From Eledone cirrhosa (taxonomy: Eukaryota): a stretch of 64,000 bases of DNA. The notes beneath the pieces were generated by a model. It had not been told where the DNA came from. It was given only the letters and a program-made list of their open reading frames with translations, and made no database searches. The stretch's first letter is position 1. Each line of letters opens with the position of its first letter. The position numbers and the translations under genes are program-made. Location: assembly GCA_964016885.1 (NCBI GenBank), contig OZ024740.1:421104001-421168000 (forward strand), written 5' to 3'. Below are positions 19,686-53,990 of the stretch, piece after piece.

Positions 19686-20701
19686 ATACATATATATATA
19701 TATATATATATATAATACATATATATATATATATACATATATATATAATACATATATATATATATAATATATTATATATATATATATATATATAATACAT
19801 ATATATATATATATATATAATACATATATATATATATATATATATATATATAATACATATATATATATATATATATATATATAATACATATATATAATAC
19901 ATATATATATATATATATATATTATATATATATATATATATATATATATATATATATATATATATATATATGTATTATATATATATATATATATATGTAT
20001 TATATTATATATATATATATATATATATATATATATATATATATATATATATATGTATTATATATATATATATATATATGTATTATATATATATATATAT
20101 ATATATGTATTATATATATATATATATATATATATGTATTATATATATATATATATATATATATATATATGTATTATATATATATATATATATATATGTA
20201 TTATATATATATATATATATATATATATATATATATATATATATATATGTATTATATATATGTATATATATATATATATGTATTATATATATGTATATAT
20301 ATATATATATGTATTATATATATGTATATATATATATATATGTATTATATATATATATATATATATATATATATGTATTATATATATATATGTATTATAT
20401 ATATATATATGTATTATATATATATATATATATATGTATATATATATATATATATATGTATATATATATATATATATATATATGTATATATATATGTATA
20501 TATATATATATATGTAGATAAATCTACCAAGAGTTTACGGTAGTGTCCAATCCGTATGAAGAACTCAATGTATTCCGGATATCATGGAAAGAAGAGATGT
20601 AATGAAAAATCACTTTCGGTGAAAGATAAACGGTATACAGAGTCAAGATAAAATATTAAACAAATAATGAATAAACAATTCCTTATATTAAACAAAAAAA
20701 G

Positions 20702-20855
20702 TTCATTATTTAACGATCGTTTCTAGGATATATATGTGTTAGAATTGGCATGCATATTCAACAGATCTATGTACAAAATTATACAAAATTATACAAACTA
20801 TCAAGATTAAATATACATACCAACACATATATACGCCGTCTTCAGAAATAATGAA
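20702..20855 (-). ncRNA. Type I hammerhead ribozyme with long stem II (F3)
   Basis: Reverse complement of 33594-33747. Confidence 0.75.
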
Positions 20856-22579
20856 GTATATTTATTGATAATAACAACAATTCAAAAATTCAGGTCCGTT
20901 TGGGAACAAAATTGACCAATGAAAACACAAAGGGTTAAATGCAGTTCGGTGTGTGTATATACATGTAAAACCCTTACACATATTTTACAAAAATGTATGT
21001 ATAATTTGTATACGCATACTAAAAGGATGGATGCAAATACAAAATTTCAAGGTTAATGTCTCTGTAAGTTTATAATGTACAGATAAGATGCGTATTGACA
21101 CACAAATATGAAATTAAGTATATAAATATATTTTTTCATACTCACACATATCCGTACAATCACACATACACGCGCGTATATGCATAAATATACACATAAC
21201 CACGAACATACAAACACACACACACCCCCACTCACATTTATATATGTGGATATAAAATCATAAGCACATGGATATTAATTCACTCACATAAACACTGGCA
21301 CACACATTTTTAGATCAAGATACAGAAATTAGGTGGGAGGGGGGGGGGAGAGGTCAGTATTCAACGGTCTGAGCAGACTGCCTAATATAGATGTATCTAT
21401 AAACTAAGAAAATAAAAAATAAAAAATAAATAATAAATAAACATTAAAGAGGAAAGAATAGAAAGAAAAAAGAAAAAAGAAATATATCAAGAAAATATAT
21501 ATATATATATATATATATATATATATACACATACATATATATATATATATATACACACACATATATATATAATAATATACATATATATACACATAGACAC
21601 ACACACACACATACATATATATACACACATATACAAACACATATATACATATACACACATCCACACTAAGAACATACATACACACACATATATAAACATA
21701 TACATATACACACATACATACATATACACATATACATACAAATACACATATATATATATATATATATATATATATATATATATATATACATATATATATG
21801 TATATACACGTACATATACACACACATATACATATAATCACACATACTATATAGACACACATATATATAACCACACACATACATGCACATATACAACACT
21901 TACATACTAATATACATACAGATATACACATACATAGCTATATATACACACAAATATATACAGACTTACATATATACATACAGACAAATACTTACGCATC
22001 TATATATCGGTATATACATACAAACACCACTACACTATCACACAACTTAGACATACAAAGAGAAAGGTATATACCTATACACACATAGATATACAAATAG
22101 AAAAACATATAGATATATATATATATATATATATACACACACACATATATATATATATATATATATATACATATATATATATATATATATACACATACAT
22201 ATACACATACACACACATACACATACACACACATACATACATGTACACACACATAGAAATATATACGCATACACACATACACACATACATATAAAGTCAT
22301 ACACACACATACACCTACACGAACATACACATACACATATATAAAGATATATATACACACACACACACACACAACACATACACACACACACATATATATA
22401 AAAAAAATAAATAATAAAGATATATACATATATATATATATACATATATATATATATATATATATATATATATATACACATACATATATATATACACACA
22501 CATACATACACACATACATAGACATACATGTACATACATACACGTACATCGATATACATACATATATATATACACACAT

Positions 22580-25500
22580 TTACTGATGTAGTATTAACTT
22601 ATTAACTTGGATATTTACCATGCGGTATTCTAATCCTATTGTATCTCTCTCAGTTATTTACCATGCGACCCTCAGTTCCTACCCCCCCCCCCCTCTATGC
22701 ACTTCTTTAAGGCTTACTACCCTGTCTTTAACCTAATTCATTCAATCTGAAAATATTGAAGAGATAAGACACTTTGCCATTCTTCTCTGCTAAAATGTAC
22801 CAGTAGAGCTGTTTCAAATTTTCCCAGCCAGCCATCCACCTAATCTACGAAGGTATTTTAGCCTACATATTGTCGTTAATATTATGATGTTCCCTGCTGT
22901 ATTAGCGTTAAATTTTCCCTGCTGTATTAGCGATAAATTTTCGAGGGTTTCTCTTAGTAGCTTTTTCATGTCGTTAATATTATGATGTTCCCTGCTGTAT
23001 TAGCGTTAAATTTTCCCTGCTGTATTAGCGATAAATTTTCGAGGGTTTCTCTTAGTAGCTTTTTCATGTCGTTAATATTATGATGTTCCCTGCTGTATTA
23101 GCGTTAAATTTTCCCTGCTGTATTAGCGATAAATTTTCGAGGGTTTCTCTTAGTAGCTTTTTTCATGACGTTATTATTGTTAATTTTACTGATGTAGTAT
23201 TAACTTGGATATTTACCATGCGACCCTCAGTTCCTACCTCACAATTTCCCTCCCCCCCACCCCCACACACCACCATAGTCTATTCGACCAATCAAACCTA
23301 GCATGCCATTTCCACTGCTGCTGCTGCTACTACCTGCCTAACTAACTCTCTCCTCCTCTGGCGCATCCCAACACACCCTGCCATTACCCCACCACCACTG
23401 TCCTTCTAGCCCTCAATTTTCCCACCGTTATGGATGGATGAGCTGGGAATACACGAGCAACTCTGAATCAATAGATGAAATATGAATCTGCGAGCTACCA
23501 AGCACCCACGTGAAGCGCCAACCCAGAGACCCTCCCCTACGAGTGTCGACAAATGCCCAAAACTCCGAGTTGGTACCATCAATGTAGGCTCAATGAAAGG
23601 AAGAGCAGGAGAAATCGTAGAAATGCTAGAGCGAAAGGAAGTTGATGTATGCTGTGTGCAAGAGACTAGATGGAGAGGAGGGTCTGCTAGAGTCCTTGTA
23701 GGAAAAAGCCAGTGCTACAAATTTTTCTGGGTGGGAAATGACGATGGGATGGGTGGTGTAGGTATACTATTAGCTGACAAGTGGGTAGATAAAGTAATCT
23801 CAGTGTACAGGGTAAATGCAAGAATCATTAAACTCAGACTAGTCCTGAATAAGACAATTACCACAATAATATCAGCTTACGCACCCCAATCGGGGCTGCC
23901 AGACGAACTTAAGGATAGGTTTTACGAGTCCCTAATACACACTACTGCTCTAACAGACGACAAGGACTTCCTAATCATTGCAGGAGATTTTAACGGACAC
24001 GTAGGTAAACACTGCGACGGCTTCAATAGAGTACATGGAGGCCATGGAGTTGGCACAAGGAATGAGGAAGGATTCAGACTTCTAGAATTCTGCGACGCCA
24101 ATGACATGTCGATATGTAACACAAACTTTAAAAAACCCGACAACCACCTGATCACCTATAGATCAGGGGAGCACTCTAGTCAGTTAGATTTTATCCTCAT
24201 CAGAGGACGTGACAGATGGACGGTCGTAAACACAAAAGCCTTCCCTAGTGAGGAATGTACATCCCAACATAGCTTAGTTGTCAGCGACCTCACGGTCAGA
24301 ACTAGACGAGCCCTGAAACAGAGGCCAACCTGGAGAAGAAAGATCTGGAAGCTGAAAGTCCCCTCAACCAGTAACAGATTTAAAGATATTTTACTCAACG
24401 CCTACGACAGTAAAGAAGAACAGATAGAGACATTTAACGTAGAAGAGAACTGGGAGTTCCTAAAAAATAACTTACTAGAGGCGACGGATGAGGTTTGTGG
24501 CTGGAGTAAGACTTCAAGCAGGAGGAGAGTGACTTGGTGGTGGAACAATAAGGTAGATGAAGCAGTCAAGGCCAAGAGACAGGCATGGAAAGAATGGAAG
24601 AACGGGGGGAGCAGGGTACATTACATAGAGACCAAGAGGGAAGCTAGGCGACAAGTATACTTAGCTAGGAGGGAAGCAGAGGATAGAAAATTCAAGCATG
24701 TTTTACAACGTGAGGACCAGAAACAGGAGGTATTCAAGATTGCGAGGCAGTGTGTCAGAGATAGTTGTGATGTCATTGGAGAGAAGTGTATCCGGAATGA
24801 TAAAGGTGAGCTTGCCCTCACAAGTGCTGAGAAGAAAGATGCATGGAAGAGTCATTATGATAGATTACTAAATGAGGAGAATGCATGGGAAGAAGAGACC
24901 CTACCCCACGTAGACCCTATAGAGGGACCAGCAGTACAAGTCAGCGGCAGCGTAGTAAGTAAGGCAATCAGAGATATGAAGATAGGGAAGGCAACCGGTC
25001 CATCGGGTATAGCTGCCGAGATGCTGAAGGCATCTGGGTCTGTAGGTCACACTATAACCACACGTATCGTTAACCAGGTAATACTAGAGGGGGCCATACC
25101 AAAAGATTGGTGCAGTAGCATCATTGTCAACTGCTACAAAGGTAAAGGCGATGCACTAGATAGAGGAAACTATAGAGGTATAAAGTTGATGGACCAGGTC
25201 ATGAAAGTAACAGAAAGAGTTATAGCACAGCTGATTAGGGACCGGGTGAATATAGACGAGATGCAATTTGGGTTTGTTCCAGGGAAAGGCACCACTGATG
25301 CGCTCTTCCTTGTGAGGCAATTACAGGAAAAGTACCTAGCTAAAAGTAAGCCACTCTACTTGGCATTTGTCGACCTTGAGAAAGCCTTTGACAGAGTTCC
25401 ACGTGCAGTAATCTGGTGGGCTCTTAGAAAACTAGGAGTAGATGAATGGCTTGTGAAAGCGGTACAAGCCATGTATAGGGGAGCAGTCAGCAAAGTTAGG

Positions 25501-53700: not shown

Positions 53701-53766
53701 CCCACTCCCCACCCTCTCCTACCACTTGTAGAGACCTATAAATACAATATTTATTTTTTGATACCC

Positions 53767-53817
53767 AGATTCCTGATGATTTCTAATGAATGAAACAGTT
53801 CTAGTCCTGTAGAATCT
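53767..53817 (+). ncRNA. Type I hammerhead ribozyme (F5)
   Basis: AGATTC-CTGATGA-TTTC TAAT GAAT-GAAA-CAG TTCTAGTC CTG-TA-GAATCT; canonical core, GUA triplet. Confidence 0.82.
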
Positions 53818-53990
53818 CATCTATATTAAAATATATTATATATATATATATATTATATATATATATATATTATATATATATATATATTATATATATATAT
53901 ATATTATATATATATATATATTATATATATATATATATTATATATATATATATATATATTATATATATATATATATTATATATATATATA

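Follow-up and report, generated by a model that had tools for sequence, protein, structure and literature searches.

Penelope-like elements of Eledone cirrhosa carry kilobases of microsatellite that probably serve later retroelements as landing sites

Three families of Penelope-like elements (PLEs) in Eledone cirrhosa, designated F3, F5 and F6, copy a long microsatellite cargo together with their coding sequence. The composite insertions that represent them lie within positions 20515..53831 of a 64,000-nucleotide stretch of contig OZ024740.1 (G000:C1:421104001-421168000, in a genome of 3.0 Gb), hereafter the window, and were resolved by comparing the window with itself. In each family the copied unit includes a 3' region of 1.2-4.5 kb, half to three-quarters of which is TG/TA microsatellite, and (TA)n runs in this cargo have been hit by later retroelements both here and at five other loci. 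Because the cargo brings such runs and they are later hit, each jump likely adds about 10-16 potential landing sites. The seeding appears to be opportunistic and a minor source of microsatellite, and we give this reading a probability of about 0.7. A first-pass annotation of the same DNA had proposed that these elements deliver new targets with each jump in a positive feedback that inflates the microsatellite content of the host; its weak form stands, given the hits on cargo runs in the window and at five loci, and its strong form is not supported.

Microsatellite was measured as alternating purine/pyrimidine (TG/TA-type) bases, which make up 34% of the whole window versus 9.9% of a random genome sample of 600 kb (60 stretches of 10 kb). 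The remainder of the window is mostly retroelements, namely several RTE-type elements of the class without long terminal repeats (LTRs) and several PLE families.

The full arm of F3 lies on the reverse strand. Its open reading frame (ORF; 29302..31413) is 5'-truncated, with 703 codons plus the stop, and specifies a predicted reverse transcriptase (RT) plus, at the C-terminus, a GIY-YIG-like endonuclease; elsewhere the frame has 830 amino acids in most of 63 scored genomic copies, all of them 99-100% identical. The 3' region consists of an ORF-proximal part (26903..29301, 47% TG/TA microsatellite) and a distal part (20648..22579, with mosaic at 21495-22579 and a unique tail at 20648-21494), between which a nested RTE-type element, RTE-A copy 3, occupies 22580..26902 on the forward strand. 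A 133-nt tail extension (20515..20647) is present on the full arm only. Measured from the stop at 29302 to the end at 20515, less the 4323 nt of RTE-A, the 3' region comes to 4464 nt, and its microsatellite content is 49% overall and 47-57% by part. The inverted, 5'-truncated arm (31421..33801, forward strand) lies upstream of the ORF and is a copy of the last 2.4 kb of the element; it holds 3' region only and finishes at the short end, 133 nt short of the full arm. Mirrored segments of the two arms are 96.5% identical (20648-22579 against 33801-31857) and 98.2% identical (26902-27349 against 31860-31421), and over a unique part of 701 nt the identity is 100%. The period of tandem F3 arrays is 6.64-6.68 kb, which includes the 3' region, and in these arrays the 133-nt extension separates the 3' end of each unit from the 5' end of the unit after it.

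F5 is present in the window as two arms without a full ORF, joined at about 50289-50330 within the sequence that encodes GIY-YIG. The left arm, on the reverse strand, is divided by F6 into a distal piece (43400..46218) and a proximal piece (48828..50288). The distal piece includes a tail extension of about 70 nt (43400-43468), beyond the end of the arm proper at 43469, and a hammerhead-like core at 43505-43527; the proximal piece contains a GIY-YIG coding fragment (49902-50354) whose last bases overlap the arm junction. The right arm (50289..53831, forward strand) has a GIY-YIG fragment that runs to the stop at 50720, a 3' region of 3111 nt from that stop to the end at 53831, and a second hammerhead-like core at 53773-53795. 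This 3' region is 75% microsatellite, within a range of 75-84% for F5. Once F6 is removed, the two arms are colinear over their whole length, and every 100 aligned columns of their unique parts hold 98-100 matches. At other loci, the open frames of full-length F5 copies reach 920 amino acids, with 758 the most frequent length. Within 44000-53300, the microsatellite parts of the two arms differ by about 710 bp, and one stretch of about 300 bp occurs in the left arm only; this difference may reflect slippage of reverse transcription on the mosaic or very fast change of the tracts after insertion, or possibly an assembly error.

F6 is an inverted pair (46219-48827) nested in the left arm of F5. 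Its left arm (46219..47733, reverse strand) comprises a 35-nt tail (46219-46253), the 3' region and 87 codons from the end of the ORF (47502-47759), whose last bases overlap the junction with the right arm; the right arm (47734..48827, forward strand) is 3' region only, without the tail. The arms are 98.8% identical (46254-47352 against 48824-47734). From the stop at 47502 to the end at 46219 the 3' region measures 1283 nt, tail included, and is 57-59% microsatellite (58% overall). A full F6 ORF, taken from locus L048, encodes 766 amino acids and has a Cx4CxxC linker as well as cysteine residues that lie in the core of GIY-YIG.

These measurements bear out the 3' region lengths of the first-pass annotation, which had described all three regions as largely TG/TA microsatellite; this is apt for F5, and for F3 and F6 the share is about half. 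Its description of the arms as mirrored is confirmed for F3, for F6 and, after removal of F6, for F5. The annotation had further used a hammerhead ribozyme as the 3' landmark of every family, for which F5 alone offers a candidate. Both F5 arms have a CUGAUGA-N12-GAAA core (43505-43527, reverse strand; 53773-53795, forward strand) at 36-58 nt from the short 3' end. This core fits the core descriptor of Craig et al. 2021, yet no Rfam hammerhead is found on 53690-53835 at E ≤ 10. Neither strand of the full F3 unit or of the complete F6 unit contains the core, and no Rfam family matches 20505-20760, at the F3 end, at E ≤ 10. Across the whole window there is no Rfam hammerhead at the gathering score and none among the matches listed at E ≤ 10, many of which are look-alikes of microRNA families arising from microsatellite.

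Protein comparisons assign F3, F5 and F6 to the PLEs, with a predicted RT and, C-terminally, a GIY-YIG endonuclease. The F6 ORF matches RVT_1 at 30.2 bits, against a Pfam cut-off of 29.6. A profile of 10 F3-type sequences aligns with the F6 ORF over 591 columns (hhalign probability 97.3%, E=1.7e-11), and the alignment covers the N-terminal motifs, the RT (YRDD versus YLDD), the thumb and the GIY-YIG domain. The C-terminus of F5 gives a weak match to GIY-YIG (PF01541; E=0.003, under the curated cut-off) and is 42-44% identical to the C-terminus of F3. Moreover, the endonuclease motifs (I/L)(V/I)Y...Y(I/V)G are visible in F3, F5, F6 and P0002, and are aligned in the profile comparison. F3 and Fx47 have no RT or GIY-YIG match in Pfam even at E ≤ 10, and the F3-type profile has 0 matches among PDB sequences at E ≤ 1; homologues of F3 carry the precomputed family listings PF26215 and PF28514, given here by accession. 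Public homologues of the F3 protein (P0004-P0123) are mostly of about 700 amino acids on contigs of 2.3-3.5 kb, those with named sources being from Argonauta hians and Bolinopsis microptera; such small contigs represent either short elements or assembly breaks at ORF-adjacent repeats.

The inverted arms are the normal insertion structure of PLEs. Head-inward inverted pairs with variable inner junctions are found at 6 of 8 F6 loci, 3 of 11 F5 loci and 4 of 16 F3 loci, and 11 of the 16 F3 loci have a same-orientation upstream partial copy or tail (the pseudo-LTR form) instead of or besides the inverted copy. The tail is one-sided in every family (133 nt in F3, about 70 nt in F5, 35 nt in F6), as seen in six of six F6 pairs; three of three left arms of F5 pairs are without it. 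The structural sections of Craig et al. 2021 (PMC8557442) describe the same features for PLEs: pseudo-LTRs formed by partial tandem copies, an inverted 5'-truncated copy next to the element, and a one-sided tail.

A later inverted duplication at the DNA level, or an assembly artefact, could also produce mirrored arms and an appearance of copied cargo, and the first-pass annotation had itself raised the former. The inverted similarity does extend about 0.98 kb past both ends of F5 (42203-43179 against 54773-53819) through RTE-type fragments, and the length difference between the microsatellite parts of the F5 arms (about 710 bp) fits such a history. These flanking fragments, however, are two copies of one RTE-type element of about 775 bp with different outer flanks. 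They have about 18 mismatches inside the element, or about 97.7% identity there (47 mismatches when the flanks are counted), compared with 98-100 matches per 100 columns in the unique parts of F5. In addition, independent loci of all three families repeat the inverted arrangement, with inner junctions that vary and with the tail confined to one arm, and dispersed and tandem copies that are not inverted contain the cargo too. A duplication at the DNA level is therefore rejected on the recurrent PLE architecture, the differing outer flanks and the cargo of non-inverted copies, and the explanation as a whole is highly improbable.

The two copies of the 775-bp element (42209-42975, forward strand; 53992-54773, reverse strand) share the same 5' end, have (TGA)n tails, and converge from either side on the (TA)n tract into which F5 later inserted. 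The tail type recurs at five other loci (L033, L034, L058, L071 and L078), and the element may be a non-autonomous RTE derivative.

Dispersed copies establish that the microsatellite cargo is inherited from source copies as part of the retrotransposed unit. Each of the 16 sampled F3 copies, from eight contigs, aligns colinearly, as one chain that starts in the ORF and continues across the mosaic. Ten do so as a single alignment of 6.4-6.7 kb, at 93-99% identity, to the 3' end, and one reaches the 3' end in two pieces around an internal deletion of about 600 nt. The other five belong to a diverged subfamily, with one piece of 5.0-5.3 kb at 89-92% and the remainder at about 82% in the two that were checked. 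Exact 16-mer landmarks of the F3 mosaic are likewise retained in order, 14-24 of 24 in 11 copies and 4-7 in five. For F6, four of eight fetched copies align across the whole 1.1 kb at 94-95%, and the other four are shorter, 5'-truncated tails. F5 was sampled as 22 full-length copies picked solely for an open ORF; in 17 of the 22 the 3' region is 2.4-4.1 kb long (median 3.0 kb) and 45-80% microsatellite. Joined loci were mapped without a low-complexity filter or an 85% identity floor, because F5 cargo aligns at only about 80-83%. The claim that microsatellite is copied with the element thus holds up, in that it is colinear in dispersed and tandem copies alike. A common mosaic among dispersed copies is clear for F3 and F6, and for F5 extends to the layout and not to the detail.

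All three families insert into TA-type repeats, in agreement with the earlier description of them as microsatellite-targeting. A TA-type repeat immediately follows 11 of 11 F3 3' ends (eight of these ends are short and three are long, carrying the 133-nt tail; ACAT/TA mixtures make up two of the 11 flanks), 10 of 11 F5 3' ends (eight of these with the tail of about 70 nt) and 8 of 8 F6 3' ends. In the window itself, (TA)n target tracts lie to the left (19686..20513) and right (33799..34711) of F3 and to the left (43006..43399) and right (53832..53991) of F5. In the cargo, perfect (TA)≥10 runs, of at least ten units, average 9.5 per F3 copy and 16 per F5 copy.

Both nested insertions reported by the first-pass annotation are real, and each has a clean empty site in the opposite arm. 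RTE-A copy 3, which has an APE, RT and PHD ORF at 23479-26601 and a (TGA)7 tail, lies within the F3 cargo between ...ACACACAT and AGACATATAC..., with a target-site duplication of CAT or ACAT. The site is uninterrupted at 31857-31860 in the right arm and in all 16 other F3 copies, none of which contains RTE-A. Similarly, the F6 pair splits a (TA)n run of the F5 left arm whose intact counterpart, at about 51714-51757 in the right arm, has the same unique flanks; the occupied site has about 25 more TA bases than the empty one.

Five further retroelement insertions interrupt F5 cargo at other loci, and for three of them the site is a single (TA)n run or its immediate surroundings. Of all the nested insertions, those of PLEs occupy (TA)n runs of the cargo. 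The interruption on contig C9 is a complete F3 of about 8 kb, pseudo-LTR included, which divides the cargo at 53025|53013, in window coordinates, and on contig C5 an inverted F3 composite divides it at 51467|51566. One F5 copy (L124) contains a 671-nt RTE-A fragment at about 51203 that is 99.4% identical to the window copy, and two others (L127 and L131) contain different F6/P0002-like PLEs, each of which splits the (TA)n run equivalent to 53123-53158. Two more copies (L134 and L138) have large interruptions whose insert was not recognised, so that the 22 ORF-selected F5 copies include three verified interruptions and two with an unrecognised insert. The equivalent of 53123-53158 is a local hot spot, with two independent PLE hits and the F3 insertion of C9 (L027+L119) only a few tens of bases away.

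Several observations weigh against reading the cargo as a ready supply of targets. The cargo mosaic has a G+C content of 18-33%, and the landing tracts that flank elements in the window are mostly near-pure (TA)n with a G+C content of 0-5%; RTE-A itself entered an ACAT-type mosaic, not pure (TA)n. The F3 cargo is uninterrupted in 16 of 16 sampled copies, and the sampled copies are the best-scoring and hence the youngest. RTE-type 3' ends lie beside TA repeats in 8 of 9 cases in the window as against 5 of 17 abutting (TA)6 in random DNA. A crude count of RTE tails beside (TA)≥10 runs shows no difference between random DNA (2 of 382) and F5 cargo (2 of about 350); the latter denominator is extrapolated from 272 runs in 17 uninterrupted copies, and both cargo tails lie in L124, which is interrupted. 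In its fine pattern the F5 mosaic is only loosely shared among dispersed copies, which retain 0-8 of 13 landmarks at about 83% identity; the two window arms share 11 of 13, and a control of six F3 loci gives 0 of 13. Given this loose sharing, part of what looks like the same mosaic may be fast-evolving or variable at birth. Microsatellite alignments are also ambiguous, and assembly errors within them are possible. Finally, F3, F5 and F6 account for none of the 59,143 microsatellite bases of the random sample, and F3 matches occur there in 2 of 60 stretches, as stubs of less than 360 nt without cargo. For RTE elements, with pure TA-like tracts forming 2.2% of bases in random DNA, the 8 of 9 and 5 of 17 cases amount to a marked preference for TA repeats and not to strict targeting.

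RTE-A recurs at the left of the window, where one copy together with about 2.4 kb of near-pure (AT)n forms a 6.9-kb unit that is present twice in tandem (112-6081 and 6993-12883, 98.2% identity). Because they belong to this tandem unit, RTE-A copies 1 and 2 are not independent insertions.

The genome-wide scale bears on how far the seeding could go. The random sample contains 382 (TA)≥10 runs, or about 637 per Mb, and a first look at the unique tails yields 1928 (F3), 1719 (F5) and 1133 (F6) candidates, which are not exact copy numbers. If all of these were full length, which is an overestimate, their microsatellite would come to about 9 Mb, where the genome holds an estimated 295 Mb, and their runs to about 50,000-65,000, in either case about 3% of the totals reached by extrapolation. 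As just these three references were used, F3, F5 and F6 are the only families that the figures bound. Of the 60 random stretches, 16 contain coding remnants of PLEs from many families, with 0-44% microsatellite in the kilobase that follows the 11 ORF ends found there, and other PLE families may thus add to the total.

Under a stronger hypothesis, targets carried in cargo would sustain a chain reaction that builds nests and accounts for much of the TA/TG load of the host. A full-length F5 or F3 copy does add 10-16 perfect (TA)≥10 runs, and its insertion consumes none because the run that is hit is split in two. Interruptions are already present in young F5 copies (three verified and two unrecognised among 22), 60 of the 197 (TA)≥10 runs of the window lie inside F3, F5 or F6 cargo, and the PLE remnants of the random stretches, with 0-44% microsatellite after their ORF ends, would fit wider seeding. 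Against these points, the three families hold 0 of 59 kb of random-sample microsatellite and, as an upper estimate, at most about 3% of the runs and microsatellite bases of the genome. Secondary hits so far number about 0.14-0.23 per F5 copy, which is below one, and most insertions sit in pure (TA)n tracts of kilobase scale whose composition differs from that of cargo. Furthermore, a (TA)n-flanked PLE at 57702-58525 has a 3' region of only about 0.6 kb (to (TA)n at 59145) with no microsatellite cargo. A chain reaction on this scale is unlikely, neither a runaway process nor a large share in the genomic microsatellite load is supported by the evidence, and the earlier suggestion of host microsatellite inflation fails on the same figures. 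The cargo-free element belongs to a further PLE family, represented by a head-to-head inverted pair (57702-58043, reverse strand, and 58043-58525, forward strand) and also at 12939-13160.

A different explanation is that the cargo is functional: (UA)n/(UG)n tracts in the RNA could pair with (TA)n DNA to home the ribonucleoprotein, or the tract could act as a spacer or Z-DNA-forming sequence in transcription or in the formation of tandem and inverted copies. Three families from two PLE lineages (F3/F5-type and the CCHH-bearing F6-type) keep it between the ORF and a unique tail of 0.4-0.85 kb, and full-length young F3 copies are 93-99% identical, as a function might lead one to expect. The (TA)n-flanked PLE at 57702-58525, however, does without cargo, and Hydra-clade PLEs, which also target (TA)n, are generally <3 kb long according to the sections of Craig et al. 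2021 (PMC8557442) that treat them. The F5 cargo, moreover, varies from 2.4 to 4.1 kb and retains 0-8 of 13 landmarks, as neutral sequence would. Taken together, these points make a functional cargo quite unlikely.

Opportunistic reuse of a passively carried cargo is consistent with a simple mechanism. Cleavage and priming specific for (TA)n would treat a run in cargo like any other (TA)n run, and nests would grow where cargo-rich copies land. The cargo may have arisen in the 3' untranslated regions of master copies, by slippage or by capture of target repeats between the element and a downstream tail. An insertion of sufficient length brings its own target along, and such targets are used repeatedly, by several families. 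The reuse of cargo targets helps to explain the growth of nests like this window. It is unlikely, though conceivable, that carrying a target is an evolved strategy, with kilobase (TA)n-bearing cargo repeatedly acquired and kept to provide self-made safe harbours in the form of growing, gene-free nests that would serve the PLEs, their relatives and non-coding hitch-hikers at no cost to the host. If it were true, the hot (TA)n run of F5, with two independent hits and a third close by, would be an example of niche construction by a transposon.

The window has further features. An F3-like tail, 84% identical, lies at 62201-62625. A GC-rich PLE at 38536-39933 (reverse strand) has its ORF stop at 38536, and its 3' region is unreadable because an assembly gap of 200 N (38224-38423) begins about 110 bp downstream. 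CUGANGA...GAAA motifs with long intervening hairpins are present at 62006-62042 and 6846-6887 on the forward strand and at 37016-37057 on the reverse strand, within short non-coding elements bounded by (TA)n. Flanked by (TA)n tracts on both sides, a weak tRNA match (18380-18437, reverse strand; 30.6 bits against a gathering score of 29) may represent the start of a short interspersed nuclear element. Outside the window, a palindromic non-coding element of roughly at least 190 nt (starting aggaaaagagtcaggaccccgac... or similar) occurs in (TA)n runs beside F5 or F6 copies at four loci (L044, L045, L050 and L051); at L045 it has TG/TA mosaic on both flanks, which may be F5 cargo.

How PLEs integrate is poorly understood, and accounts of transposons and microsatellites usually follow the link between them in a single direction. 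In the present case a single set of elements targets (TA)n and delivers it as well, and the paired arms, the occupied and empty sites and the repeatedly hit run amount to dated natural experiments. They offer a system for asking whether transposons build their own insertion niches, and also one for the rate of microsatellite change, since arms from the same event differ by hundreds of bases in microsatellite while their unique parts are nearly identical. There is a practical consequence as well, in that such repetitive cargo will break short-read assemblies, so that the length and copy number of PLEs will be underestimated.

Among known systems, the closest are the endonuclease-containing PLEs of the Naiad and Hydra clades, as portrayed in the relevant sections of Craig et al. 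2021 (PMC8557442). The likeness extends to a single ORF with RT and GIY-YIG, pseudo-LTRs, an inverted 5'-truncated copy, a one-sided tail and insertion at (TA)n. The Hydra clade has canonical hammerheads and an endonuclease without CCHH. Insertion at (TA)n is shared with that clade; however, its elements are generally <3 kb, whereas the F3 unit is 6.6-7.0 kb, about 4.4 kb of it 3' region, and the hammerhead, universal there, has no core in F3 or F6, a comparison drawn feature by feature. Tails of 30-40 bp are given in the same account, versus 35, about 70 and 133 nt here.

RTE-A has a 1040-amino-acid ORF (Exo_endo_phos E=3.3e-08, RVT_1 E=8.3e-32) and tails of (TGA)6-8. It resembles the RTE clade in its single APE-then-RT ORF, short tandem-repeat 3' tail and frequent 5' truncation, and differs in an extra PHD finger and in a marked but non-exclusive preference for TA repeats.

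The two halves of the present finding have separate precedents. In Chlamys, tandem repeats lengthen some PLE families, and the account in Craig et al. 2021 (PMC8557442), as far as its main sections go, describes no microsatellite cargo as a target. Retroelements carry microsatellites or proto-microsatellites and so disperse related loci, as reported, in the portions concerned, by Tay et al. 2010 (PMC2887409) for an RTE element in Lepidoptera and by Grandi and An 2013 (PMC3812793). The latter also names elements that target microsatellites: Waldo, Mino, Kibi, Koshi, Dong, MINE-1 and Micron. In these portions of the two accounts carrying and targeting are separate, whereas F3, F5 and F6 do both, and their kilobase cargo is itself repeatedly hit. 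No description was found in the literature of kilobase microsatellite cargo in a PLE serving as a target, although supplementary file S1 of Craig et al. 2021 (family lengths, tandem repeats), which lay outside this survey, may bear on the point. The targeting of (TA)n, the tandem and inverted structures and the one-sided tails of PLEs are thus known, as are the spread and the targeting of microsatellites by retroelements; the use of the cargo as a target is apparently new.

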